Sequence record: PP410321
Direction: 5' to 3' (one strand)
Length of the DNA: 64,000 nucleotides
Origin: Escherichia phage vB_EcoM_CUA3
The position numbers and the translations under genes are program-made. Under the pieces are notes generated by a model. The model was not told the DNA's origin. It ran no database searches and saw only the letters and a program-made list of their open reading frames with translations. Position 1 is the stretch's first letter; every line of letters begins with the position of its first letter. Of this stretch, positions 24,078 to 59,795 are shown piece after piece.

Positions 24078-24356
24078 TTAGTATTTCTCTTCAGGTTGGA
24101 AAACACCACGACAAGCCCACATAGAAGCTTCTTTCAANNNNNNNNNNNNNNNNNNNNNNNNNNNNNNNNNNNNNNNNNNNNNNNNNNNNNNNNNNNNNNN
24201 NNNNNNNNNNNNNNNNNNNNNNNNNNNNNNNNNNNNNNNNNCNTCTTCAAGCGCTTTAAAGATTAATCCCAATCGAACTTCAGCATCTTTGATGGCATTC
24301 ACTTTACCGATTTTATCGTCGGTATGTGGCTTGTAACCTTTGATATCTTCAATCAT
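24078..24356 (-). CDS. hypothetical protein
   Basis: 92-aa ORF, middle masked. Confidence 0.3.
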   Translation of the reverse strand: MIEDIKGYKPHTDDKIGKVNAIKDAEVRLGLIFKALEXXXXXXXXXXXXXXXXXXXXXXXXXXXXXXXXXXXXLKEASMWACRGVFQPEEKY

Positions 24357-24571: not shown

Positions 24572-24860
24572 ATTTTTTCCAGTCAGAAATCATACGAATC
24601 TCTTGGTCATAAGTCAAGAGACTACGAGTAATAATACCCTTACAAGGCCCTGAGATGAACTCGAGAGTGAAGTAAGGAACCAATTTCATTAATCGGATGC
24701 TTGGGGCATGGCATCTAAAACGAGAGCCCTTAAAGGGCCCTGTCATGAATACATATTCCAATGGATAGAAATAAGCATATTCGAAATTTGTAGTAAGGTC
24801 CTCTCTTCGAACCTTACGTGAGAAATAACAGAACTCAAAAAGCTCTTCATCAGTCATCAT
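24564..24860 (-). CDS. hypothetical protein
   Basis: 98-aa ORF. Confidence 0.35.
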   Translation of the reverse strand: MMTDEELFEFCYFSRKVRREDLTTNFEYAYFYPLEYVFMTGPFKGSRFRCHAPSIRLMKLVPYFTLEFISGPCKGIITRSLLTYDQEIRMISDWKKYV

Positions 24861-25384
24861 TGCATTCCTATCACAAAGAACAGCGGCAGAGGTTTAGAAC
24901 CCTGGCACATAAATTTATTAATCATTACCTGGTAAGCTTCATAAAACTTATCCATCGCCGGAAGGCGCATTGGCTCTTCGATAATAATCAATAATCGAGT
25001 AACAGATAGTCCACGATACTTATGGAAATTGTCTTCATCNAANANTGNNCGTACAGTATCATACACAACAAACCCAGGACCTTCTACTTGAAGGTGTGGT
25101 TGGGCCTTAGAAACCCTTTTTATTATATTACAGATTTCTCGTGAGCGATGTGAAGAACTTGACATAACAATTACATCATTACCCTTGGAAACCCAATCAG
25201 CTGCGAACTGGGCAAGGGCGCTTGTTTTACCTGTTTGCCTTCCCCCGTCAAGTCGAAGAGTACCAAACTCTTGCATTCTTGAAGCGGGTTCGTACCAGGT
25301 GTATTGGTCTGAATCTAAGCGTTCAATGGCGCGTTCAGCGAAGGCGTGCATTAAGGTTAGATAAATGGGAGTTAAAAATTTCAT
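24857..25384 (-). CDS. small P-loop NTPase-like protein
   Basis: Walker A-like GGRQTGKTS and hydrophobic-acidic LLIIIEE; 175 aa. Confidence 0.4.
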   Translation of the reverse strand: MKFLTPIYLTLMHAFAERAIERLDSDQYTWYEPASRMQEFGTLRLDGGRQTGKTSALAQFAADWVSKGNDVIVMSSSSHRSREICNIIKRVSKAQPHLQVEGPGFVVYDTVXXXXDEDNFHKYRGLSVTRLLIIIEEPMRLPAMDKFYEAYQVMINKFMCQGSKPLPLFFVIGMQ

Positions 25385-25475
25385 AATTGTCTCTTAGTTG
25401 AGGGGCCGTTCCTTGGCACATAATTCATCCCTTTCTCNGNATTTNNACCCATTACCGCACTTGGGCTCGACCTTA

Positions 25476-25844
25476 TTACAGGTTGGNNNNNNNNNNNNNN
25501 NNNNNNNNNNNNNNNNNNNNNNNNNNNNNNNNNNNNNNNNNNNNNNNNNNNNNNNNNNNNNNNNNNNNNNNNNNNNNNNNNNNNNNNNNNNNNNNNNNNN
25601 NNNNNNNNNNNNNNNNNNNNNNNNNNNNNNNNNNNNNNNNNNNNNNNNNNNNNNNNNNNNNNNNNNNNNNNNNNNNNNNNNNNNNNNNNNNNNNNNNNNN
25701 NNNNNNNNNNNNNNNNNNNNNNNNNNNNNNNNNNNNNNNNNNNNNNNNNNNNNNNNNNNNNNNNNNNNNNNNNNNNNNNNNNNNNNNNNNNNNNNNNNNN
25801 NNNNNNNNNNNNGATTCTGTAATAAATTGTTGATAAGTTTTCAT
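25476..25844 (-). CDS. internal (capsid-injected) protein with capsid-targeting leader, body masked
   Basis: N-terminus MKTYQQFITE matches the T4 internal-protein capsid targeting sequence (MKTYQEFIAE). Confidence 0.55.
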   Translation of the reverse strand: MKTYQQFITEXXXXXXXXXXXXXXXXXXXXXXXXXXXXXXXXXXXXXXXXXXXXXXXXXXXXXXXXXXXXXXXXXXXXXXXXXXXXXXXXXXXXXXXXXXXXXXXXXXXXXXXXXXXXXXNL

Positions 25845-25868
25845 ATTATTCCTTAAGTTGATAGAAGT

Positions 25869-25898
25869 ATTCTATCACGGATTTAATTAAGCGTAAAT
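25869..25898 (-). promoter_or_regulatory. early-promoter-like element
   Basis: ATTTAC (25893-25898), 18 nt, TAGAAT (25869-25874), overlapping the end of denV. Confidence 0.4.
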
Positions 25899-26303
25899 AG
25901 CCTTACCATAATGTTTGTACCAGGTAGGGCGTTGTGCAATTTTTTCATCCAAACGGGCTTGTGAAATAGCGATAGAAGCTTCGTGAGGAACATAATCACC
26001 ACGGAATTCCTGAGGAATGTCGCTAATATCCTGGACCGTAGTATCCTTGATATTAAAACCACGTTTTAAACATTCGGCTATAAGCTCAATTTGGCGTTTA
26101 CGTAAGAACTCTAGCTTATCGTAAAAGAACGTAACATGACCTGTGCCAAGGATAAAAGTAGGACTGATTTTGAAATCACGAACACGTTTACCATTAGCCA
26201 CATGCTTACGAACTGCACCGAAAACACGGGGTAATTCACGATATTCGGCCATAAGATGTTGGTCAGCCAATTCAGATACTAAGGTAAGGTTGATACGAGT
26301 CAT
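25887..26303 (-). CDS. denV: endonuclease V, pyrimidine-dimer DNA glycosylase (DenV)
   Basis: 138 aa, high similarity to T4 endonuclease V ([27 protein letters not shown]...). Confidence 0.9.
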
Positions 26304-26305
26304 TT

Positions 26306-26758
26306 TTAATCTCCTGTAGTTGATAGGTTTATAGTATCATGCCTACAGGAGATGTAAACNNNNNNNNNNNNNNNNNNNNNNNNNNNNNNNNNNNNNNNNN
26401 NNNNNNNNNNNNNNNNNNNNNNNNNNNNNNNNNNNNNNNNNNNNNNNNNNNNNNNNNNNNNNNNNNNNNNNNNNNNNNNNNNNNNNNNNNNNNNNNNNNN
26501 NNNNNNNNNNNNNNNNNNNNNNNNNNNNNNNNNNNNNNNNNNNNNNNNNNNNNNNNNNNNNNNNNNNNNNNNNNNNNNNNNNNNNNNNNNNNNNNNNNNN
26601 NNNNNNNNNNNNNNNNNNNNNNNNNNNNNNNNNNNNNNNNNNNNNNNNNNNNNNNNNNNNNNNNNNNNNNNNNNNNNNNNNNNNNNNNNNNNNNNNNNNN
26701 NNNNNNNNNNNNNNNNNNNNNNNNNNNNNNNNNNNNNAAATTCATTGTAAGTTTTCAT
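26306..26758 (-). CDS. internal protein with capsid-targeting leader (ipII/ipIII-type), body masked
   Basis: N-terminus MKTYNEF; located between denV and e as the T4 ipII/ipIII genes. Confidence 0.55.
26331..26359 (-). promoter_or_regulatory. T4-type early promoter for denV
   Basis: GTTTAC (26354-26359), 17 nt, TACTAT (26331-26336); perfect 9-bp inverted repeat ctcctgtag/ctacaggag. Confidence 0.6.
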
Positions 26759-27480
26759 NNNNNNNNNNNNNNNNNNNNNNNNNNNNNNNNNNNNNNNNNN
26801 NNNNNNNNNNNNNNNNNNNNNNNNNNNNNNNNNNNNNNNNNNNNNNNNNNNNNNNNNNNNNNNNNNNNNNNNNNNNNNNNNNNNNNNNNNNNNNNNNNNN
26901 NNNNNNNNNNNNNNNNNNNNNNNNNNNNNNNNNNNNNNNNNNNNNNNNNNNNNNNNNNNNNNNNNNNNNNNNNNNNNNNNNNNNNNNNNNNNNNNNNNNN
27001 NNNNNNNNNNNNNNNNNNNNNNNNNNNNNNNNNNNNNNNNNNNNNNNNNNNNNNNNNNNNNNNNNNNNNNNNNNNNNNNNNNNNNNNNNNNNNNNNNNNN
27101 NNNNNNNNNNNNNNNNNNNNNNNNNNNNNNNNNNNNNNNNNNNNNNNNNNNNNNNNNNNNNNNNNNNNNNNNNNNNNNNNNNNNNNNNNNNNNNNNNNNN
27201 NNNNNNNNNNNNNNNNNNNNNNNNNNNNNNNNNNNNNNNNNNNNNNNNNNNNNNNNNNNNNNNNNNNNNNNNNNNNNNNNNNNNNNNNNNNNNNNNNNNN
27301 NNNNNNNNNNNNNNNNNNNNNNNNNNNNNNNNNNNNNNNNNNNNNNNNNNNNNNNNNNNNNNNNNNNNNNNNNNNNNNNNNNNNNNNNNNNNNNNNNNNN
27401 NNNNNNNNNNNNNNNNNNNNNNNNNNNNNNNNNNNNNNNNNNNNNNNNNNNNNNNNNNNNNNAGGAGATGTAAACNNNTT

Positions 27481-27969
27481 TTATCTATAAGCGGCCCAAG
27501 TGCCGGTTTTAAAGGTAGAGATAACTCGCTTAGCTCGGTTAGGGGTTTGCTTGTACCAACGAGACTGGGCCAGGTTAACTGCTGCATCGTCCCAACGTTT
27601 TTGCTGAAGCATACGCAGAGAGTTAGTGAACCCTGCTACACCCGCTTCACCCATTTGGAAGACCATATTAATCAATGCACAACGACGAACTTCGTCCAGC
27701 ACATCATAAACAGGTTTCAATTTAGGATTACGCAATATAGCTCTACGAGCATTTTCCACTGAACGATTAAAGAGTTGTTCAGCCTCAGCCATAGTAATAC
27801 GACCATTGCAAACTCGACCCATAAGTTTGTCAAGTTCAGCACGAGCAACATCTTTAGATGGGTTCTTGGTAACTAACTGACCGATACCAATAGTCCAATA
27901 ACCTTCAGTATCTTTATAAAGATTTAAATCAAGACCTTCGTCTTGACGTAACATATCAAAAATATCCAT
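27481..27969 (-). CDS. e: lysozyme (endolysin, T4 e homolog)
   Basis: 162 aa, catalytic E11/D20/T26 context conserved ([25 protein letters not shown]), high identity to T4 lysozyme. Confidence 0.95.
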
Positions 27970-31708: not shown

Positions 31709-32059
31709 TTAGAGTTGTACATCACTTCTGCAATATTCTAAAAATAATTTATCGCTGTCTACTGTATCCCAACGCCGCCAAGATGGATTCCAGACCAAAG
31801 CGTTGTCACCACAATCATTGAGCTTAAAATGGTCATAGTACATAGCTATGTGTCTAGTCTCGTCACCAGAGAACCCTAGTATAGGCTCGCCATGGGTATG
31901 ATACATATGATGGTGCATTGAGAGGTCGCATTTATAAAACATCTCACGTTTACCACGAACGAACAAGAAAGCTTGCCCGTTCATATAGAATTCTTTATCT
32001 GTTTTCAAAAGATATTTGAATACTGAATCTTTGTGCATAAGTCCTCCTACCACATCCAT
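31709..32059 (-). CDS. hypothetical His-rich protein
   Basis: 116 aa, HHHMYHTHGE cluster. Confidence 0.35.
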   Translation of the reverse strand: MDVVGGLMHKDSVFKYLLKTDKEFYMNGQAFLFVRGKREMFYKCDLSMHHHMYHTHGEPILGFSGDETRHIAMYYDHFKLNDCGDNALVWNPSWRRWDTVDSDKLFLEYCRSDVQL

Positions 32060-35531: not shown

Positions 35532-36241
35532 TATGCTCTCCTTCACTCTGTTGTTTTGATAGGTCTATAGTATCATNTTNNNNNNNNNNNNNNNNNNNNN
35601 NNNNNNNNNNNNNNNNNNNNNNNNNNNNNNNNNNNNNNNNNNNNNNNNNNNNNNNNNNNNNNNNNNNNNNNNNNNNNNNNNNNNNNNNNNNNNNNNNNNN
35701 NNNNNNNNNNNNNNNNNNNNNNNNNNNNNNNNNNNNNNNNNNNNNNNNNNNNNNNNNNNNNNNNNNNNNNNNNNNNNNNNNNNNNNNNNNNNNNNNNNNN
35801 NNNNNNNNNNNNNNNNNNNNNNNNNNNNNNNNNNNNNNNNNNNNNNNNNNNNNNNNNNNNNNNNNNNNNNNNNNNNNNNNNNNNNNNNNNNNNNNNNNNN
35901 NNNNNNNNNNNNNNNNNNNNNNNNNNNNNNNNNNNNNNNNNNNNNNNNNNNNNNNNNNNNNNNNNNNNNNNNNNNNNNNNNNNNNNNNNNNNNNNNNNNN
36001 NNNNNNNNNNNNNNNNNNNNNNNNNNNNNNNNNNNNNNNNNNNNNNNNNNNNNNNNNNNNNNNNNNNNNNNNNNNNNNNNNNNNNNNNNNNNNNNNNNNN
36101 NNNNNNNNNNNNNNNNNNNNNNNNNNNNNNNNNNNNNNNNNNNNNNNNNNNNNNNNNNNNNNNNNNNNNNNNNNNNNNNNNNNNNNNNNNNNNNNNNNNN
36201 NNNNNNNNNNNNNNNNNNNNNNNNNNNNNNNNTATTTATAC

Positions 36242-36439: not shown

Positions 36440-36515
36440 TGGTCGAGACAGTAGGGATCGAACCTACGACCCAGGACTTAGAAGGTCCTTGCTCTTCCTT
36501 CTGAGCTATGCCTCG
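36440..36515 (-). tRNA. tRNA-Arg (anticodon UCU)
   Basis: manual cloverleaf: acceptor cgaggca/tgtctcg, D-arm gctc...gagc, anticodon loop cuUCUaa, T-arm gtagg-ttcgatc-cctac, encoded CCA. Confidence 0.8.
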
Positions 36516-36519
36516 TATT

Positions 36520-36594
36520 TGGCGGACATGCATGGATTCGAACCATGGACCAATTGATTAACAGTCAACTGCTCTACCACTGAGCTACACATCC
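36520..36594 (-). tRNA. tRNA-Asn (anticodon GUU)
   Basis: manual cloverleaf: acceptor ggatgtg/catgtcc with G-U pairs, D-arm gctc-agtggta-gagc, anticodon loop cuGUUaa, T-arm catgg-ttcgaat-ccatg, encoded CCA. Confidence 0.75.
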
Positions 36595-36598
36595 AAAT

Positions 36599-36672
36599 TG
36601 GTGGCCCTGGGTGGAATCGAACCACCATCCAGCGATTATGAGTCGCTCGCTTGACCGTCCAGCTACAGGGCC
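36599..36672 (-). tRNA. tRNA with CAU anticodon (Met or lysidine-type Ile)
   Basis: manual cloverleaf: acceptor ggccctg/cagggcc, anticodon stem agcga/tcgct, loop cuCAUaa, T-arm ggtgg-ttcgatt-ccacc, encoded CCA. Confidence 0.75.
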
Positions 36673-38238: not shown

Positions 38239-38424
38239 TTACTCACCTTTAGAGATTTTATCCATAACGAAAGAGATTGAACCAATTAAGAATGCCACTA
38301 CTAAAGAGATTGTATTCTCGGAAGTTGTAAGCAAATCCAACATGAATCCTGCAAACATACTAAAGCCAAAAGCAGTAACAGCGGCCAGTGCAGTAACATT
38401 TCTAATTAATTCGCAACGTTTCAT
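38239..38424 (-). CDS. hypothetical small membrane protein
   Basis: 61 aa with two hydrophobic segments. Confidence 0.35.
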   Translation of the reverse strand: MKRCELIRNVTALAAVTAFGFSMFAGFMLDLLTTSENTISLVVAFLIGSISFVMDKISKGE

Positions 38425-38786
38425 TTTATTATCCNNNNNCTCATNTGTTTTGATAGGGCTATAGTATCANNNNNNNNNNNNNNNNNNNNNNNNNNNNNNN
38501 NNNNNNNNNNNNNNNNNNNNNNNNNNNNNNNNNNNNNNNNNNNNNNNNNNNNNNNNNNNNNNNNNNNNNNNNNNNNNNNNNNNNNNNNNNNNNNNNNNNN
38601 NNNNNNNNNNNNNNNNNNNNNNNNNNNNNNNNNNNNNNNNNNNNNNNNNNNNNNNNNNNNNNNNNNNNNNNNNNNNNNNNNNNNNNNNNNNNNNNNNNNN
38701 NNNNNNNNNNNNNNNNNNNNNNNNNNNNNNNNNNNNNNNNNNNNNNNNNNNNNNNNNNNNNNNNTAAATTCTTGATAAGTTTTCAT
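38421..38786 (-). CDS. ipI: internal protein with capsid-targeting leader (ipI locus), body masked
   Basis: N-terminus MKTYQEF; located upstream of 57B as T4 ipI; early promoter repeat upstream. Confidence 0.55.
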   Translation of the reverse strand: MKTYQEFXXXXXXXXXXXXXXXXXXXXXXXXXXXXXXXXXXXXXXXXXXXXXXXXXXXXXXXXXXXXXXXXXXXXXXXXXXXXXXXXXXXXXXXXXXXXXXXXXXXDTIALSKXMXXXIIK

Positions 38787-39072
38787 TTTNNNGTTTCCAT
38801 TTGGTTNNNTTTGTTTTGATAGGTCTATAGTATCATNNNTATAGNCCTTGTAAANAACTTTTNNNNNNNNNNNNNNNNNNNNNNNNNNNNNNNNNNNNNN
38901 NNNNNNNNNNNNNNNNNNNNNNNNNNNNNNNNNNNNNNNNNNNNNNNNNNNNNNNNNNNNNNNNNNNNNNNNNNNNNNNNNNNNNNNNNNNNNNNNNNNN
39001 NNNNNNNNNNNNNNNNNNNNNNNNNNNNNNNNNNNNNNNNNNNNNNNNNNNNNNNNNNNNNNNNNNNNNNTT

Positions 39073-39780
<708 letters not shown>

Positions 39781-45368: not shown

Positions 45369-46014
45369 NNNNNNNNNNNNNNNNNNNNNNNNNNNNNNNN
45401 NNNNNNNNNNNNNNNNNNNNNNNNNNNNNNNNNNNNNNNNNNNNNNNNNNNNNNNNNNNNNNNNNNNNNNNNNNNNNNNNNNNNNNNNNNNNNNNNNNNN
45501 NNNNNNNNNNNNNNNNNNNNNNNNNNNNNNNNNNNNNNNNNNNNNNNNNNNNNNNNNNNNNNNNNNNNNNNNNNNNNNNNNNNNNNNNNNNNNNNNNNNN
45601 NNNNNNNNNNNNNNNNNNNNNNNNNNNNNNNNNNNNNNNNNNNNNNNNNNNNNNNNNNNNNNNNNNNNNNNNNNNNNNNNNNNNNNNNNNNNNNNNNNNN
45701 NNNNNNNNNNNNNNNNNNNNNNNNNNNNNNNNNNNNNNNNNNNNNNNNNNNNNNNNNNNNNNNNNNNNNNNNNNNNNNNNNNNNNNNNNNNNNNNNNNNN
45801 NNNNNNNNNNNNNNNNNNNNNNNNNNNNNNNNNNNNNNNNNNNNNNNNNNNNNNNNNNNNNNNNNNNNNNNNNNNNNNNNNNNNNNNNNNNNNNNNNNNN
45901 NNNNNNNNNNNNNNNNNNNNNNNNNNNNNNNNNNNNNNNNNNNNNNNNNNNNNNNNNNNNNNNNNNNNNNNNNNNNNNNNNNNNNNNNNNNNNNNNNNNN
46001 NNNNNNNNNCNATA

Positions 46015-46308
46015 ATGTCGGGCTTAAGTTATAACCAATGCGTAACGGCAGGTCATGAAGCATGGCCTCCTACAGTAATAAATGCCACCCAGGGTAAAGT
46101 ATTTACAGGTGGCATTCCTGTACTAGTCGATGGGGACCCAATAACTCCTCATACAGAAATTAAAAAACCATATGAAACCCACGGTGGGGTAACCCAACCT
46201 AGAACATCAAAGGTATATGTTACAGGCAAAAAGGCTGTCCAAATGGCAGACCCTATTTCGTGTGGCGATACAGTCGCACAAGCCTCATCTAAAGTATTCA
46301 TAAAATAG
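46015..46308 (+). CDS. 5.4: PAAR-repeat spike-tip protein (T4 gp5.4 homolog)
   Basis: 97 aa, [19 protein letters not shown]...[10 protein letters not shown] near-identical to T4 gp5.4 as I recall it. Confidence 0.85.
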
Positions 46309-53384: not shown

Positions 53385-55195
53385 TGAAACAAGAATTAAA
53401 AATAGGCCCCGCCGTTGATGATGGCTCCGGAGATTACCTGCGTGCAGGTGGTCTAAAAATCAATAATAACTTTAANGAGNNNNNNNNNNNNNNNNNNNNN
53501 NNNNNNNNNNNNNNNNNNNNNNNNNNNNNNNNNNNNNNNNNNNNNNNNNNNNNNNNNNNNNNNNNNNNNNNNNNNNNNNNNNNNNNNNNNNNNNNNNNNN
53601 NNNNNNNNNNNATTAACGTTCAGCTTCCTAAAGGCACCCCTTCAGAATATAACTTTGTAATTCGTTTGCGTGACGTTTATTCTTCTTGGCAAGCAAACCC
53701 TGTAACNNNNNNNNNNNNNNNNNNNNNNNNNNNNNNNNNNNNNNNNNNNNNNNNNNNNNNNNNNNNNNNNNNNNNNGACCTTGAACTTGTTTACTGTGCA
53801 CCGGGTCGCTGGGAATATGTCGAGAACAAACAAGTTAACCGTATTCCNAATAACGACCTAGCTACTGTAGCAACCAAACAGTTTATTGCTACNGAAGGCC
53901 AAACTGANNNNNNNNNNNNNNNNNNNNNNNNNNNNNNNNNNNNNNNNNNNNNNNNNNNNNNNNNNNNNNNNNNNNNNNNNNNNNNNNNNNNNNNNNNNNN
54001 NNNNNNNNNNNNNNNNNNNNNNNNNNNNNNNNNNNNNNNNNNNNNNNNNNNNNNNNNNNNNNNNNNNNNNNNNNNNNNNNNNNNNNNNNNNNNNNNNNNN
54101 NNNNNNNNNNNNNNNNNNNNNNNNNNNNNNNNNNNNNNNNNNNNNNNNNNNNNNNNNNNNNNNNNNNNNNNNNNNNNNNNNNNNNNNNNNNNNNNNNNNN
54201 NNNNNNNNNNNNNNNNNNNNNNNNNNNNNNNNNNNNNNNNNNNNNNNNNNNNNNNNNNNNNNNNNNNNNNNNNNNNNNNNNNNNNNNNNNNNNNNNNNNN
54301 NNNNNNNNNNNNNNNNNNNNNNNNNNNNNNNNNNNNNNNNNNNNNNNNNNNNNNNNNNNNNNNNNNNNNNNNNNNNNNNNNNNNNNNNNNNNNNNNNNNN
54401 NNNNNNNNNNNNNNNNNNNNNNNNNNNNNNNNNNNNNNNNNNNNNNNNNNNNNNNNNNNNNNNNNNNNNNNNNNNNNNNNNNNNNNNNNNNNNNNNNNNN
54501 NNNNNNNNNNNNNNNNNNNNNNNNNNNNNNNNNNNNNNNNNNNNNNNNNNNNNNNNNNNNNNNNNNNNNNNNNNNNNNNNNNNNNNNNNNNNNNNNNNNN
54601 NNNNNNNNNNNNNNNNNNNNNNNNNNNNNNNNNNNNNNNNGGCCAGGTTCGTATTACTGATGTGGATAATCCNNNNNNNNNNNNNNNNNNNNNNNNNNNN
54701 NNNNNNNNNNNNNNNNNNNNNNNNNNNNNNNNNNNNNNNNNNNNNNNNNNNNNNNNNNNNNNNNNNNNNGAGAACACAGTGAACCCTAATAACCCTGCAA
54801 CTTATATGGGNNNNNNNNNNNNNNNNNNNNNNNNNNNNNNNNNNNNNNNNNNNNNNNNNNNNNNNNNNNNNNNNNNNNNNNNNNNNNNNNNNNNNNNNNN
54901 NNNNNNNNNNNNNNNNNNNNNNNNNNNNNNNNNNNNNNNNNNNNNNNNNNNNNNNNNNNNNNNNNNNNNNNNNNNNNNNNNNNNNNNNNNNNNNNNNNNN
55001 NNNNNNNNNNNTGATGATAACNNNGGCCCTATTGTTATCGGTGGATGTTTGGTAGACCCGGATGCGCAAGGTCCTGCTTATACCAAATATCGTGAAGATA
55101 AAGCNNNNNNNNNNNNNNNNNNNNNNNNNNNNNNNNNNNNNNNNNNNNNNNNNNNNNNNNNNNNAACCGTTTATCGCTGGGTGAGGATTGCGTAA
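53384..55195 (+). CDS. 10: baseplate wedge pin protein (T4 gp10 homolog), largely masked
   Basis: 603 aa (T4 602); TAATG overlaps with 9 and 11; identity mainly by position and length. Confidence 0.7.
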   Translation: MKQELKIGPAVDDGSGDYLRAGGLKINNNFXEXXXXXXXXXXXXXXXXXXXXXXXXXXXXXXXXXXXXXXXXXXXXINVQLPKGTPSEYNFVIRLRDVYSSWQANPVXXXXXXXXXXXXXXXXXXXXXXXXDLELVYCAPGRWEYVENKQVNRIXNNDLATVATKQFIAXEGQTXXXXXXXXXXXXXXXXXXXXXXXXXXXXXXXXXXXXXXXXXXXXXXXXXXXXXXXXXXXXXXXXXXXXXXXXXXXXXXXXXXXXXXXXXXXXXXXXXXXXXXXXXXXXXXXXXXXXXXXXXXXXXXXXXXXXXXXXXXXXXXXXXXXXXXXXXXXXXXXXXXXXXXXXXXXXXXXXXXXXXXXXXXXXXXXXXXXXXXXXXXXXXXXXXXXXXXXXXXXXXXXXXXXXXXXXXXXXXXXXXXXXXGQVRITDVDNXXXXXXXXXXXXXXXXXXXXXXXXXXXXXXXXXENTVNPNNPATYMXXXXXXXXXXXXXXXXXXXXXXXXXXXXXXXXXXXXXXXXXXXXXXXXXXXXXXXXXXXXXXXXXXXXDDNXGPIVIGGCLVDPDAQGPAYTKYREDKXXXXXXXXXXXXXXXXXXXXXTVYRWVRIA

Positions 55196-55860
55196 TGACT
55201 TTAACAGAAATGAAAAGCGGGTTAAAATCCCGCNTNGCCGACTNNNNNNNNNNNNNNNNNNNNNNNNNNNNNNNNNNNNNNNNNNNNNNNNNNNNNNNNN
55301 NNNNNNNNNNNNNNGCAAACCAAACCCAAAAAGGTGTTTATTATCCTACAGTCCAAAGTGCTATTGATGATATTGCNNNNNNNNNNNNNNNNNNNNNNNN
55401 NNNNNNNNNNNNNNNNNNNGAAAACAGAGCACCGGGCTTTATTCAACAATCAGATNNNNNNNNNNNNNNNNNNNNNNNNNNNNNNNNNNNNNNNNNNNNN
55501 NNNNNNNNNNNNNNNNNNNNNNNNNNNNNNNNNNNNNNNNNNNNNNNNNNNNNNNNNNNNNNNNNNNNNNNNNNNNNNNNNNNNNNNNNNNNNNNNNNNN
55601 NNATTGCCAATAGTTATATTTTAGCAGAAACCTCTATTGACNNNNNNNNNNNNNNNNNNNNNNNNNNNNNNNNNNNNNNNNNNNNNNNNNNNNNNNNNNN
55701 NNNNNNNNNNNNNNNNNNNNNNNNNNNNNNNNNNNNNNNNNNNNNNNNNNNNNNNNNNNNNNNNNNNNNNNNNNNNNNNNNNNNNNNNNNNNNNNNNNNN
55801 NNNNNNNNNNNNNNNNNNNNNNNNNNNNNNNCTTTATATCACTATAAGCGAGTAAGTTAA
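55195..55860 (+). CDS. 11: baseplate wedge / short tail fiber connector (T4 gp11 homolog), largely masked
   Basis: 221 aa (T4 219); overlapping start/stop with 10 and 12. Confidence 0.65.
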   Translation: MTLTEMKSGLKSRXADXXXXXXXXXXXXXXXXXXXXXXXXANQTQKGVYYPTVQSAIDDIXXXXXXXXXXXXXXXENRAPGFIQQSDXXXXXXXXXXXXXXXXXXXXXXXXXXXXXXXXXXXXXXXXXXXXXXXXXIANSYILAETSIDXXXXXXXXXXXXXXXXXXXXXXXXXXXXXXXXXXXXXXXXXXXXXXXXXXXXXXXXXXXXXXXXLYHYKRVS

Positions 55861-57390
55861 TGTCTACAAATACACTAAAACATATAAGTGATAAATCAGA
55901 ATTTAAAACATTCGACCCTACTGGGTCGAATTTNNNNNNNNNNNNNNNNNNNNNNNNNNNNNNNNNNNNNNNNNNNNNNNNNNNNNNNNNNNNNNNNNNN
56001 NNNNNNNNNNNNNNNNNNNNNNNNNNNNNNNNNNNNNNNNNNNNNNNNNNNNNNNNNNNNNNNNNNNNNNNNNNNNNNNNNNNTGCTGTGACCCCGGCTA
56101 CTTTAAAAGGCCGCTTGGACATTCCTACTCAAGCAACTGAAACCTATGTAGGTATCACCCGTTATGCTACTAATGACGAGGCCATCGCTGGGACAGAGAC
56201 CCAGGCGGCAATCGTAGCATCATCTTTGAAGGCNNNNNNNNNNNNNNNNNNNNNNNNNNNNNNNNNNNNNNNNNNNNNNNNNNNNNNNNNNNNNNNNNNN
56301 NNNNNNNNNNNNNNNNNNNNNNNNNNNNNNNNNNNNNNNNNNNNNNNNNNNNNNNNNNNNNNNNNNNNNNNNNNNNNNNNNNNNNNNNNNNNNNNNNNNN
56401 NNNNNNNNNNNNNNNNNNNNNNNNNNNNNNNNNNNNNNNNNNNNNNNNNNNNNNNNNNNNNNNNNNNNNNNNNNNNNNNNNNNNNNNNNNNNNNNNNNNN
56501 NNNNNNNNNNNNNNNNNNNNNNNNNNNNNNNNNNNNNNNNNNNNNNNNNNNNNNNNNNNNNNNNNNNNNNNNNNNNNNNNNNNNNNNNNNNNNNNNNNNN
56601 NNNNNNNNNNNNNNNNNNNNNNNNNNNNNNNNNNNNNNNNNNNNNNNNNNNNNNNNNNNNNNNNNNNNNNNNNNNNNNNNNNNNNNNNNNNNNNNNNNNN
56701 NNNNNNNNNNNNNNNNNNNNNNNNNNNNNNNNNNNNNNNNNNNNNNNACTTTAAACGTTAACGGTACTTTACGTCGTAATNNNNNNNNNNNNNNNNNNNN
56801 NNNNNNNNNNNNNNNNNNNNNNNNNNNNNNNNNNNNNNNNNNNNNNNNNNNNNNNNNNNNNNNNNNNNNNNNNNNNNNNNNNNNNNNNNNNNNNNNNNNN
56901 NNNNNNNNNNNNNNNNNNNNNNNNNNNNNNNNNNNNNNNNNNNNNNNNNNNNNNNNNNNNNNNNNNNNNNNNNNNNNNNNNNNNNNNNNNNNNNNNNNNN
57001 NNNNNNNNNNNNNNNNNNNNNNNNNNNNNNNNNNNNNNNNNNNNNNNNNNNNNNNNNNNNNNNNNNNNNNNNNNNNNNNNNNNNNNNNNNNNNNNNNNNN
57101 NNNNNNNNNNNNNNNNNNNNNNNNNNNNNNNCGTTTCCATAAACATGCCGGTGGTTTTGGTGAACATGATAACGCAGGTGCTTTTGGTAACACNNCTAAC
57201 NNNNNNNNNNNNGGTACTCGTAAAGGACTAGACTGGGATAACCGTNNNNNNNNNNNNNNNNNNNNNNNNNNNNNNNNNNNNNNNNNNNNNNNNNNNNNNN
57301 NNNNNNNNNNNNNNNNNNNNNNNNNNNNNNNNNNNNNNNNNNNNNNNNNNNNNNNNNNNNNNNNNNNNNNNNNNNNNNNNNNNNNNNNNN
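55860..57390 (+). CDS. 12: short tail fiber (T4 gp12 homolog), 3' end approximate
   Basis: N-terminus and AVTPATL...GITRYATNDEAIAG and HKHAGGFGE...GTRKGLDWDNR (zinc-binding receptor domain) match T4 gp12; stop lies in N run after 57245. Confidence 0.85.
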
Positions 57391-58349
57391 NNNNNNNNNN
57401 NNNNNNNNNNNNNNNNNNNNNNNNNNNNNNNNNNNNNNNNNNNNNNNNNNNNNNNNNNNNNNNNNNNNNNNNNNNNNNNNNNNNNNNNNNNNNNNNNNNN
57501 NNNNNNNNNNNNNNNNNNNNNNNNNNNNNNNNNNNNNNNNNNNNNNNNNNNNNNNNNNNNNNNNNNNNNNNNNNNNNNNNNNNNNNNNNNNNNNNNNNNN
57601 NNNNNNNNNNNNNNNNNNNNNNNNNNNNNNNNNNNNNNNNNNNNNNNNNNNNNNNNNNNNNNNNNNNNNNNNNNNNNNNNNNNNNNNNNNNNNNNNNNNN
57701 NNNNNNNNNNNNNNNNNNNNNNNNNNNNNNNNNNNNNNNNNNNNNNNNNNNNNNNNNNNNNNNNNNNNNNNNNNNNNNNNNNNNNNNNNNNNNNNNNNNN
57801 NNNNNNNNNNNNNNNNNNNNNNNNNNNNNNNNNNNNNNNNNNNNNNNNNNNNNNNNNNNNNNNNNNNNNNNNNNNNNNNNNNNNNNNNNNNNNNNNNNNN
57901 NNNNNNNNNNNNNNNNNNNNNNNNNNNNNNNNNNNNNNNNNNNNNNNNNNNNNNNNNNNNNNNNNNNNNNNNNNNNNNNNNNNNNNNNNNNNNNNNNNNN
58001 NNNNNNNNNNNNNNNNNNNNNNNNNNNNNNNNNNNNNNNNNNNNNNNNNNNNNNNNNNNNNNNNNNNNNNGGTCCACATATTGATACGGTAGGTAAACAA
58101 CCGGCNTANNNNNNNNNNNNNNNNNNNNNNNNNNNNNNNNNNNNNNNNNNNNNNNNNNNNNNNNNNNNNNNNNNNNNNNNNNNNNNNNNNNNNNNNNNNN
58201 NNNNNNNNNNNNNNNNNNNNNNNNNNNNNNNNNNNNNNNNNNNNNNNNNNNNNNNNNNNNNNNNNNNNNNNNNNNNNNNNNNNNNNNNNNNNNNNNNNNN
58301 NNNNNNNNNNNNNNNNNNNNNNNNNNNNNNNNNNNNNNNNNNNNNNNNN

Positions 58350-59795
58350 CGTACTGATGTTAATGAGTTAAAAACCATAGTTGGTGCTAGTTCANNNNNN
58401 NNNNNNNNNNNNNNNNNNNNNNNNNNNNNNNNNNNNNNNNNNNNNNNNNNNNNNNNNNNNNNNNNNNNNNNNNNNNNNNNNNNNNNNNNNNNNNNNNNNN
58501 NNNNNNNNNNNNNNNNNNNNNNNNNNNNNNNNNNNNNNNNNNNNNNNNNNNNNNNNNNNNNNNNNNNNNNNNNNNNNNNNNNNNNNNNNNNNNNNNNNNN
58601 NNNNNNNNNNNNNNNNNNNNNNNNNNNNNNNNNNNNNNNNNNNNNNNNNNNNNNNNNNNNNNNNNNNNNNNNNNNNNNNNNNNNNNNNNNNNNNNNNNNN
58701 NNNNNNNNNNNNNNNNNNNNNNNNNNNNNNNNNNNNNNNNNNNNNNNNNNNNNNNNNNNNNNNNNNNNNNNNNNNNNNNNNNNNNNNNNNNNNNNNNNNN
58801 NNNNNNNNNNNNNNNNNNNNNNNNNNNNNNNNNNNNNNNNNNNNNNNNNNNNNNNNNNNNNNNNNNNNNNNNNNNNNNNNNNNNNNNNNNNNNNNNNNNN
58901 NNNNNNNNNNNNNNNNNNNNNNNNNNNNNNNNNNNNNNNNNNNNNNNNNNNNNNNNNNNNNNNNNNNNNNNNNNNNNNNNNNNNNNNNNNNNNNNNNNNN
59001 NNNNNNNNNNNNNNNNNNNNNNNNNNNNNNNNNNNNNNNNNNNNNNNNNNNNNNNNNNNNNNNNNNNNNNNNNNNNNNNNNNNNNNNNNNCCTATTAAAG
59101 CCGATATAACCAAGAATAAAGGTGATATCGTTACTTTAACTGGACGAGTAGCAGCTAATGAAGGCGAAATTACTGATATTAAANTNGATACCGCNAAAAT
59201 AGCTCCTTTAACAACTNNNNNNNNNNNNNNNNNNNNNNNNNNNNNNNNNNNNNNNNNNNNNNNNNNNNNTGTTAAAGTCGAATCCGATAAAGTAGAAGGA
59301 ATTGATACTCGNNNNNNNNNNNNNNNNNNNNNNNNNNNNNNNNNNNNNNNNNNNNNNNNNNNNNNNNNNNNNNNNNNNNNNNNNNNNNNNNNNNNNNNNN
59401 NNNNNNNNNNNNNNNNNNNNNNNNNNNNNNNNNNNNNNNNNNNNNNNNNNNNNNNNNNNNNNNNNNNTGAAGGTAAAGTTAGTACTCTTGAAACGGGCTT
59501 AGCCGCCGTTAAAGTTGAATCGGATAAAGTNGNAGGAATNAATACCCGTTTAGGTACGGTCGAAGGTAAAGTTGGTACTCTTGAAACAGGTTTGGCTGCA
59601 GTTAAAGTTGAATCTGATAAAGTGGCAGGATTAACTACTCGCTTATCTGCGGCTGAAGCTAAAATCACTGCCTTAGAAACAGAATTAGCTAAACGTCCAC
59701 CGGTGGCTCCTGCTGCAGACGGACTTCCGTATGTTCTGGTTGATAACGCATGGGTATTATTGTCTGATTTTGTGACTTTAAATCCAGCACCATAA
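58350..59795 (+). CDS. wac: fibritin (whisker/neck) with C-terminal foldon, 5' boundary masked
   Basis: coiled-coil heptads and C-terminal ...GLPYVLVDNAWVLLSDFV resembling the T4 fibritin foldon ([27 protein letters not shown]). Confidence 0.75.
   Translation, partial: RTDVNELKTIVGASSXXXXXXXXXXXXXXXXXXXXXXXXXXXXXXXXXXXXXXXXXXXXXXXXXXXXXXXXXXXXXXXXXXXXXXXXXXXXXXXXXXXXXXXXXXXXXXXXXXXXXXXXXXXXXXXXXXXXXXXXXXXXXXXXXXXXXXXXXXXXXXXXXXXXXXXXXXXXXXXXXXXXXXXXXXXXXXXXXXXXXXXXXXXXXXXXXXXXXXXXXXXXXXXXXXXXXXXXXXXXXXXXXXXXXXXXPIKADITKNKGDIVTLTGRVAANEGEITDIKXDTXKIAPLTTXXXXXXXXXXXXXXXXXXVKVESDKVEGIDTXXXXXXXXXXXXXXXXXXXXXXXXXXXXXXXXXXXXXXXXXXXXXXXXXXXXXEGKVSTLETGLAAVKVESDKXXGXNTRLGTVEGKVGTLETGLAAVKVESDKVAGLTTRLSAAEAKITALETELAKRPPVAPAADGLPYVLVDNAWVLLSDFVTLNPAP
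59267..59658 (+). repeat. tandem 96-nt (32-aa) coiled-coil repeats inside fibritin
   Basis: EGKVxTLETGLAAVKVESDKVxGxxTRL repeated at 59467-59562 and 59563-59658, partial copy at 59267-59311. Confidence 0.7.

Follow-up and report, generated by a model that had tools for sequence, protein, structure and literature searches.

Internal-protein cassettes with a shared leader at two T-even-type loci of a probable Dhakavirus relative

The window, as the whole 64,000-nt stretch of DNA analysed is called here, is with a probability of about 0.8 the sequence of a Dhakavirus relative (of JS10, JS98 and WG01) given in JS10 coordinates, in which two standard T-even-type internal-protein (ip) loci carry cassettes that share a leader and are exchanged by recombination. 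As a finding this is already known: these are the usual freely swapped internal-protein cassettes, in a T4-like coliphage of the JS10/WG01 group. Three real MKTY..F leaders open at minus-strand ATGs (25844, 26758 and 38786), those of ORF1 and ORF2 flanking denV and that of ORF3 lying between 57B and trna.4, and both the leaders and their positions support the proposal of a sequence-only reading that internal-protein genes occupy two known ip loci. The same reading took the locus to be expanded relative to T4, which is borne out by the cassette downstream of denV; as a novelty the arrangement does not stand, being the annotated layout of JS10 and its genus, in which cassettes vary from 0 to 4.

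Reference register of the window

The window pairs gap-free with positions 32001-96000 of JS10 (NC_012741) throughout its length, while genuine relatives aligned to the window carry indels. Differences affect 3,338 of the 50,989 readable bases (6.5%, mostly synonymous), rising to 21% mismatch in some readable 100-nt stretches, and 20% of the window is given as N. The differences look natural in their pattern: they number 770, 124 and 62 at codon positions 3, 1 and 2, alter 730 codons synonymously and 140 non-synonymously, and comprise 687 transitions and 269 transversions. Given the gap-free register together with this divergence and the N runs, the window looks like the sequence of a relative laid on JS10 coordinates; it would then be a reference-frame consensus in which N presumably marks what failed to align to JS10. 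Dhakaviruses are mosaic in, or lack, the segments on which the N runs fall, and one run also covers the optional mobE homing-endonuclease gene of JS10. Each of the five leader-bearing cassettes of JS10 is 89-100% N in the window, against 20% window-wide, a level reached by only 4-9% of random placements of each cassette length. Any N run may conceal a replacement, an insertion or a deletion. Since the sequence stands in reference coordinates, N-run lengths, the ORFs that span them and gene counts in the variable regions are not data, and this is the practical lesson.

The closest phage records are about 93-96% identical to the window. Exact-protein look-ups with e, 57B and vs.7 either gave no match or led only to contigs with 92-97% identity to the window; for denV, two IMG/VR contigs of Dhakavirus size encode an identical protein (100%). 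Exact and degenerate searches with the ORF1 leader gave no match in IMG/VR or the JGI metagenomes, nor did a window-specific 28-mer adjoining an N block in IMG/VR or the GTDB genomes. The window ends inside gene 17, and genes 21 (the prohead protease) and 22 would lie beyond it.

A scan of the window with a degenerate 21-nt leader pattern, for which about 0.13 matches are expected by chance, returned the three leaders and a TTG site at 31988 with three mismatches, which is not a leader. ORF1 fits the capsid-targeting consensus M-K-T/S-Y/F-x-E-F-I/L-x-E at all 10 positions except position 6, where Gln replaces a near-invariant Glu, and ORF2 and ORF3 fit it at their seven visible residues, residues 8-10 being N. 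The check proposed for the leader, a cleavage motif at its end, gives a positive answer for ORF1 only, whose leader ends in I-T-E before Ser and so fits L/I-x-E, the site cut by the prohead protease gp21 (PMC9026906); in ORF2 and ORF3 the motif lies under N, and the JS10 counterparts read IAE then Ala and IKE then Ser. The limits first given for the three ORFs hold at their starts and fail at their ends, since 25476, 26306 and 38421 are each the first stop after an N run and the JS10 genes end at 25545, 26360 and 38493; the quoted ORF tails translate intergenic or promoter DNA and are read-through artefacts. With bodies that are 89-100% N, no internal-protein body of the three ORFs is readable for size, charge or family.

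The denV-side and ipI loci

The denV-side locus is bordered by vs.8 (24857..25384, minus strand) on the left and the lysozyme gene e (27481..27969, minus strand) on the right, both conserved, with denV (endonuclease V; 25887..26303, minus strand) as a conserved anchor between the cassettes. The early-type promoter of denV (26305..26359, minus strand; TTTACA, a 16-nt spacer, TACTAT, TG) begins with the 13-mer GTTTACATCTCCT and lies within a stem-loop (11 bp, -19.3 kcal/mol, z = -5.8) to which the denV Shine-Dalgarno also belongs. The same 13-mer recurs at 27463..27475 (minus strand), where it holds the -35 of the JS10 ipIII promoter, and the cassette block is enclosed by this pair of direct repeats. 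Between them the ORF2 leader MKTYNEF (26738..26758, minus strand) is an island of 21 nt separating two N runs: 26360..26737, in JS10 the body of a 132-aa leader ORF (PHROG 15461) that ends with a leader-like MKTYK and a stop, and 26759..27462, in JS10 ipIII (26800-27396) and its 5' region. A fourth promoter copy had been read at 27469-27474 and taken to announce a further gene in 26759-27462. What lies there is only a -35 hexamer inside GTTTACATCTCCT, the -10 being N, and the gene is a matter of synteny with the ipIII of JS10, in the reference an ordinary IPIII (86% identical to that of T4; Pfam label Phage_T4_IpIII, PHROG 5341).

It is a real if doubtful possibility that the e-to-denV block, ORF2 and ipIII together, is deleted as in dhabil, and that the ORF2 island has been cross-aligned from a leader gene elsewhere in the genome. 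One 13-mer forms both readable edges (27463-27475 and 26347-26359), which when joined give the e-to-denV junction of dhabil; ipIII is absent from this interval in 4 of the 15 Dhakavirus loci examined, with dhabil, EcWhh-1, IME281 and IME341 lacking it here; and an ipIII of the usual similarity (87-94% DNA identity to JS10 among Dhakavirus relatives) should have aligned. Furthermore, the ORF2 21-mer, which in relatives heads four or more unrelated protein bodies, equals the leaders of 154-207 aa ORFs beside tRNA genes in ABTNLsp5-like contigs, and the window is ABTNLsp5-like at its 57B junction. However, ipIII does occupy the interval in the other 11 of the 15 loci, the island stands exactly at the JS10 ORF2 start with 21 of 21 bases identical, and the alignment could also have failed through a change of gene order such as that of WG01 and QL01. 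The position of ORF2 is uncertain because its DNA matches exactly unrelated cassettes elsewhere in relatives, and ipIII is doubtful in the phage of the window and may be absent, given that the readable edges also fit a direct e-to-denV junction; the ORF2 cassette, too, may be missing here.

Downstream of denV the visible start of ORF1 (25813..25844, minus strand; ATG at 25844) reads MKTYQQFITE and then TC., hence Ser, and unmasked DNA continues from it to the denV stop codon. A promoter-like site of sigma-70 type precedes it (25869..25897, minus strand; TTTACG, a 17-nt spacer, TAGAAT, TG), with its -35 in the last denV codons. The body is an N run (25487..25812), for which the JS10 equivalent is a 99-aa 'internal head protein' (25545-25844). 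The remark that this is not a T4 position is right for T4, in which 26 nt separate vs.8 from denV, but the place is no oddity: it is the norm in JS10, JS98, WG01 and others, and a leader ORF stands downstream of denV in 23 of 39 T4-like denV loci. The leader of ORF1 matches that of WG01/PSD9 gp115 only, with 11 of 11 residues identical and 30 of 32 nt the same, both differences being synonymous. Among 94 distinct leader-body pairs in the survey, Gln6 is found in the WG01/PSD9 pair alone. The 3' flank (25385-25486) resembles JS10 beside vs.8 and WG01 on the far side. ORF1 is thus most likely a cassette of the WG01 gp115 type (119 aa, PHROG 3966), an assignment whose whole support is the 3' flank and the 11 leader residues, among them the rare Gln6 and Ser11; the region probably has a WG01-like content, a 119-aa cassette with perhaps one of 85 aa after it.

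A large protein search with the WG01-type protein returned a single near-identical cluster only, and neither it nor the 99-aa and 132-aa proteins of JS10 had a meaningful sequence match to any solved structure. A single-sequence AlphaFold model of the WG01-type protein was of moderate quality (pLDDT 68, pTM 0.57) and had no PDB match at E <= 0.001; the top hit, the nuclease inhibitor NuiA (E = 0.36, TM-score 0.27), was rejected as chance, and among viral models only the protein's own family matched. In the Pfam copy searched, which predates the names IpII, IpIII and IPI_T4 that precomputed tables contain, no model matched the JS10 cassettes. The idea of a structured RNA in the G+C-rich vs.8-ORF1 spacer was discarded, given the lack of an Rfam hit and a fold no better than that of shuffled sequence (z = -0.48).

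The ipI locus lies between two conserved borders, 57B (39073..39528, minus strand; Pfam Acb1 in relatives) and trna.4 (38239..38424, minus strand). ORF3 is visible at its start (38765..38786, minus strand) as MKTYQEF followed by A.., the first base of codon 8 (Ile in JS10), and this 22-mer is common, in exact matches, to at least 10 unrelated protein bodies. Its body is an N run (38470..38764) that corresponds to an unannotated 97-aa ORF of JS10 (38493-38786, PHROG 27873), and upstream lie an early-type promoter and ribosome-binding region (38787..38862, minus strand) that include, at 38816-38835, the 20-mer TGATACTATAGACCTATCAA, a repeated promoter element with nine occurrences. The next N run (38863..39070) covers the fifth leader ORF of JS10, which starts with GTG at 39076, encodes 69 aa and reads VKSYKEFLTE then Ala (PHROG 23867). 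This run is probably a deletion, because the window is without GTG 39076 and its junction after 57B follows ABTNLsp5, a phage devoid of that cassette, and not JS10.

It is unlikely that at least one of the N runs conceals an internal-protein family that public data lack, and with it a new injected anti-defence allele. Such a family could account for all five cassette positions being unalignable to JS10 despite flanks that are about 94% identical, and for the N over the 99-aa allele, whose DNA is 95-99% conserved among other Dhakaviruses; the pool to draw on is also large, the survey having found, in about 60 loci, 92 unique leader ORFs whose leader is near-invariant and whose bodies form 22 unrelated families. 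Nevertheless, a cassette unalignable to JS10 is not for that reason new, no body residue is visible, a deletion is the best reading of one N run and a possible reading of another block, and the leader and flank of ORF1 point to an allele that is already in 13 GenBank phage records. With N in place of the bodies, the claim of new alleles in the sequence-only reading is not tenable, and the only allele whose type can be suggested is that of ORF1.

Roles of the packaged proteins

In T4, an internal protein docks by its leader in the scaffolding core of the prohead, and gp21 cuts the leader off (PMC9026906). Several hundred copies of the mature protein enter the head with the DNA and accompany it into the cell on injection. 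In work of 2025 a separate GmrSD type IV restriction enzyme proved to be inhibited by each of T4 Ip1, Ip2 and Ip3 (PMC12373910), and ipIII is needed on strain ECOR17 (PMC9391042), so that the suggestion of an anti-restriction role agrees with both studies. For the cassettes considered here an anti-GmrSD role would be by analogy with T4 Ip1-3 only, with PHROGs 2667, 15461, 3966, 27873 and 23867 as candidates. It would be a long shot that one or more of the cassettes belong to an internal-protein family new to public databases that, delivered with the DNA, disarms a first-response defence other than the GmrSD variants which T4 Ip1-3 target. The wider interest is that internal proteins form a ready library of injected anti-restriction factors, in which any new allele may lead to a new variant of a host enzyme.

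That the packaged proteins serve chiefly as structural or DNA-condensing components of the head, and not as defence inhibitors, is quite improbable. T4 mutants lacking IPIII or all three internal proteins do accumulate polyheads, and the internal proteins co-purify with gp22 (PMC9026906); moreover, the 99-aa family (PHROG 2667) is unusually conserved across genera, which fits a housekeeping role better than an arms race. Against this, none of the T4 internal proteins is essential and each acts as an inhibitor of one particular GmrSD variant (PMC12373910), leaderless IPIII provided in trans restores infection (PMC9391042), and a range of 0 to 4 cassettes within one genus argues against a required role. 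Lastly, it is scarcely credible that the shared 5' sequence is kept as DNA or RNA, as a recombination linker or translation-initiation region, and not as a targeting peptide: Lys2 is always AAA, GAA and TTT predominate, and the identical 21-22 nt leaders on unrelated bodies in relatives would suit a linker, but Thr3 uses all four codons (44/20/16/8), Tyr4 both and Ile/Leu8 six with the amino acid kept throughout, a sign of selection on the peptide, the differences between ORF1 and WG01 are all synonymous, and the function of the leader has been shown experimentally in T4 (PMC9026906), the two roles not being exclusive.

Comparison with known T4-type phages

The preferred reading, two standard ip loci with exchangeable cassettes, includes a proposed mechanism in which cassettes would be exchanged, duplicated and lost by recombination in shared flanks, that is, in about 21-30 nt of leader DNA and in repeated early-promoter/stem-loop elements. 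Exchange of this kind may be why precisely these stretches failed to align to JS10. Identical 21-22 nt leaders on unrelated bodies, a chimeric allele in L018, the MKTYK end of the JS10 132-aa ORF and the bracketing copies of GTTTACATCTCCT could all be scars of such recombination. In the variable regions of RB49 and phi1, repeats that pair an early promoter with a stem-loop (PeSL) lie beside small non-essential genes and have been proposed as sites of modular shuffling (Arbiol et al. 2010, PMC2839356). The window shows the same association of a sigma-70-like early promoter and a stable stem-loop with variable genes, at the denV promoter (26358-26331, 11-bp stem), and is PeSL-like also in the ninefold 20-mer promoter block and in the GTTTACATCTCCT direct repeat around the cassette block; it differs in that the coding leader is presumably an additional shared patch for recombination.

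Polymorphism of the internal proteins has been known since 1994, with at least 10 reported (Repoila et al. 1994, via PMC3012670 and PMC12373910), and diverse internal proteins with only the leader in common are described in PMC3012670. As far as the 1994 work is represented in these later papers, the T-even ip genes are many unrelated small genes, with only the leader in common, that are exchanged at fixed loci, and nothing visible in the window differs from that description.

JS10 (NC_012741), JS98 (NC_010105) and WG01 (NC_031928) share with the window the order and coordinates of the conserved flanking genes and have an 'internal head protein' downstream of denV, and the window adds nothing beyond them; it differs by a nucleotide divergence of about 6% in the readable parts and in cassette bodies that are unalignable to JS10. 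Within Dhakavirus the cassettes between vs.8 and e number 0 in dhabil, 2 in EcWhh-1, 3 in JS10/PSD9 and 4 in C6/WG01, and their order varies. T4 has the same leader, IPII and IPIII starting with MKTYQEFIAE then Ala and IPI with MKTFKEF...ITE then Ala, at the same two loci, denV-e and trna.4-57B. The annotated order is vs.8, 'internal head protein' (99 aa), denV, 132-aa ORF, ipIII and e in JS10, and vs.8, denV, ipII, ipIII and e in T4, which has no cassette between vs.8 and denV and a single gene, ipI, in the ipI locus, whereas JS10, the reference of the window, has two there, and the window itself departs from T4 in showing a leader downstream of denV, that of ORF1, with Gln6.

Leaders and gene order at the internal-protein loci

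Three minus-strand ATG codons in the window, at 25844 (ORF1), 26758 (ORF2) and 38786 (ORF3), open an MKTY..F capsid-targeting leader, which bears out the count of three made in the sequence-only reading. ORF1 begins MKTYQQFITE followed by TC. (Ser), ORF2 reads MKTYNEF and is N (masked bases) from there on, and ORF3 reads MKTYQEF plus the first base of codon 8. A 21-nt degenerate leader pattern, for which ~0.13 matches across the window are expected by chance, matched these three leaders and, with three mismatches, a TTG site at 31988, which is not a leader. The sequence behind all three leaders is entirely N. The proposed ORF ends at 25476, 26306 and 38421 do not hold, as these are the first stops past the N runs, inside intergenic or promoter DNA, and are artefacts of an ORF listing that read through the N runs to the first stop.

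The identity of the two internal-protein (ip) loci, vs.8-denV-e and 57B-trna.4 (the ipI locus), and their expansion relative to T4 are supported by leaders at both loci and by a cassette, a small internal-protein gene with such a leader, downstream of denV. That this is not a T4 position is true of T4, where the order is vs.8, denV, ipII, ipIII, e and the vs.8-denV gap is just 26 nt; in Dhakavirus, however, the position is normal. The annotation of JS10 (NC_012741) gives the order vs.8, 'internal head protein' (99 aa, leader MKTYQEFITE before Ala), denV, a 132-aa ORF (leader MKTYNEFIAE before Ala), ipIII (198 aa), e. Similarly, the ipI locus of T4 holds the single gene ipI whereas that of JS10 holds two unannotated leader ORFs, of 97 and 69 aa. 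At least one leader ORF lies downstream of denV in 23 of 39 T4-like denV loci (IMG/VR), and the number of Dhakavirus cassettes between vs.8 and e ranges from 0 (dhabil) and 2 (EcWhh-1) to 3 (JS10, JS98, PSD9) and 4 (C6, WG01). Their order also varies, with the 132-aa ORF preceding ipIII in QL01 and WG01, and one contig carries the 99-aa gene upstream of denV. Across ~60 surveyed loci, 92 unique leader ORFs fall into 22 families with unrelated bodies (the protein part behind the leader), yet the leader is near-invariant, M-K-[TS]-[YF]-x-E-F-[IL]-x-E. Given that its codons vary synonymously at Thr3, Tyr4 and Ile/Leu8, the leader peptide is under selection. The locus layout and the internal-protein phenomenon are already known.

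Masked bases and a probable projection onto JS10 coordinates

Among phage records, the Dhakaviruses JS10, JS98, WG01 and their relatives come closest to the window, at ~93% identity, with none nearer. The window pairs base for base with JS10 NC_012741 32001-96000, with zero gaps over 64 kb and 3,338 mismatches, mostly synonymous, in 50,989 readable bases (6.5%); N makes up 20% of the window. The differences look natural in their pattern, numbering 770/124/62 at codon positions 3/1/2, with 730 synonymous versus 140 non-synonymous codon differences and 687 transitions versus 269 transversions. Real relatives that are about as divergent do carry indels relative to the window. Given the gapless register, the natural differences and these indels, we infer that the window is consensus-like, the projection of a relative's sequence onto JS10 coordinates, with N at unalignable places. 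The N runs fall on segments that are mosaic or missing in other Dhakaviruses and cover all five leader-bearing JS10 cassettes (89-100% N versus 20% window-wide), a level reached by only 4-9% of random placements of matching length; in the readable part, a 100-nt stretch can differ at up to 21% of its positions. It follows from the projection that N-run lengths are JS10 geometry and that any run may hide replacement, insertion or deletion.

Also in line with the projection, the N run at 45369-46009 is nearly coextensive with JS10 mobE, an optional homing-endonuclease gene (window 45401-46015), and this mobile gene is probably missing from the source phage. N runs are also dense at 53908-59090, over the JS10 genes for gp10, gp11, gp12 (short tail fibre) and wac (fibritin), so that host-recognition and whisker proteins are likewise unalignable to JS10.

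Gene content behind the leaders

Unmasked DNA joins the ORF1 leader to denV without a break. All 11 residues that can be read, among them Ser11 and a Gln6 that occurs in just 1 of 94 distinct leader-body pairs, are those of WG01/PSD9 gp115; the DNA agrees at 30 of 32 nt, both differences being synonymous. The 3' flank resembles WG01 on the far side and JS10 on the side adjacent to vs.8. The 119-aa gp115 (PHROG 3966) has no known function and occurs at ≥93% identity in 13 phage records and at ~36% in 78 others; in WG01 it is followed by a second cassette, of 85 aa. A moderate-confidence structure model of the WG01-type protein found no informative structural neighbour among PDB and viral models.

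The visible leader DNA of ORF2 and ORF3 is non-diagnostic of the body, since exact matches front at least 4 unrelated bodies for ORF2 and at least 10 for ORF3. A 'fourth gene' proposed in the N run 26759-27462 is not confirmed. All that can be seen of it is the 13-mer GTTTACATCTCCT at 27463-27475, which in JS10 includes the ipIII promoter's -35 element and which has a second copy at 26347-26359, opening the denV promoter. Joined, these visible edges form the same direct e-to-denV junction as in dhabil, where no cassette lies between the two genes. The JS10 gene at this position is an ordinary IPIII, 86% identical to that of T4, and ipIII DNA of relatives is 87-94% identical to JS10 and should have aligned. 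Given both the rejoined edges and this expected alignment, the source phage may lack ipIII, and even ORF2, or may carry them elsewhere. Overall, the earlier observation is confirmed for its leaders but not for its ORF extents and 'fourth gene'.

At the ipI locus, the N run 38863-39070 is probably a deletion, because the 57B stop junction, TAAAA, is of the type found in phage ABTNLsp5, which lacks JS10's 69-aa cassette there. Outside both classical ip loci, ABTNLsp5-like contigs (L087 7172-7636, L089, L090) carry leader ORFs of 154-207 aa (MKTYNEFL...) close to tRNA genes. At their window counterpart, 35580-36232, all bases are N, and a late-promoter consensus, TATAAATA, precedes this stretch at 36233-36240. 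The only Rfam matches within the window are three minus-strand tRNA genes at 36443-36672 (Arg, Asn and Met in the JS10 annotation).

Function and proposed cassette shuffling

In T4, the 10-residue leader sends the internal protein to the core of the prohead, gp21 cleaves after L/I-x-E, and ~360 copies per internal protein are retained in the head and then injected (PMC9026906; PMC3012670). Among the type IV restriction enzymes of the GmrSD family, T4 Ip1, Ip2 and Ip3 each block a different one, and it has been proposed that all genes of both ip loci target GmrSD variants (PMC12373910; PMC9391042). By analogy, Dhakavirus cassettes would act as the T4 proteins do, and an anti-restriction role for those of the window is plausible. 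In precomputed tables for relatives, 57B (39073-39528, minus strand) carries a Pfam Acb1 (anti-CBASS nuclease) domain and the vs.4 homologue (24078-24356, minus strand) an Acb2/Tad1 hairpin domain, so known anti-defence genes adjoin both ip loci.

The cassettes are likely to be shuffled via recombination in shared flanks. Unrelated bodies stand behind identical leader DNA, the direct repeat GTTTACATCTCCT flanks the cassette block on both sides, and one surveyed locus (L018 4794-5096) holds a natural chimera, MKTYQEFITESAKVPKAFQ..., whose first residues come from the 87-aa family and whose body is that of the 99-aa family, with the crossover just past the leader. The 132-aa ORF ends in ...NWMKTYK* (JS10 locus L003, 26357-26377; also WG01, IME281 and JS98), apparently a recombination scar in what was the leader of a downstream cassette, since lost. 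The 20-mer TGATACTATAGNCCTATCAA, comprising a -10 element and transcript start, has nine minus-strand copies in the window (15088, 16487, 19910, 24033, 26320, 30203, 35556, 38450 and 38816; 0.01 expected by chance) and is a genome-wide early-promoter block, not specific to ip genes. The denV promoter (26305-26359, minus strand) lies inside an 11-bp stem-loop, ATCTCCTGTAG...CTACAGGAGAT (-19.3 kcal/mol, z = -5.8), with the denV Shine-Dalgarno sequence in its 3' arm; the ribosome-binding site would be hidden in read-through transcripts and free in those from the local promoter. The evidence for shuffling fits the PeSL promoter/stem-loop cassette model (PMC2839356; PMC4122927).
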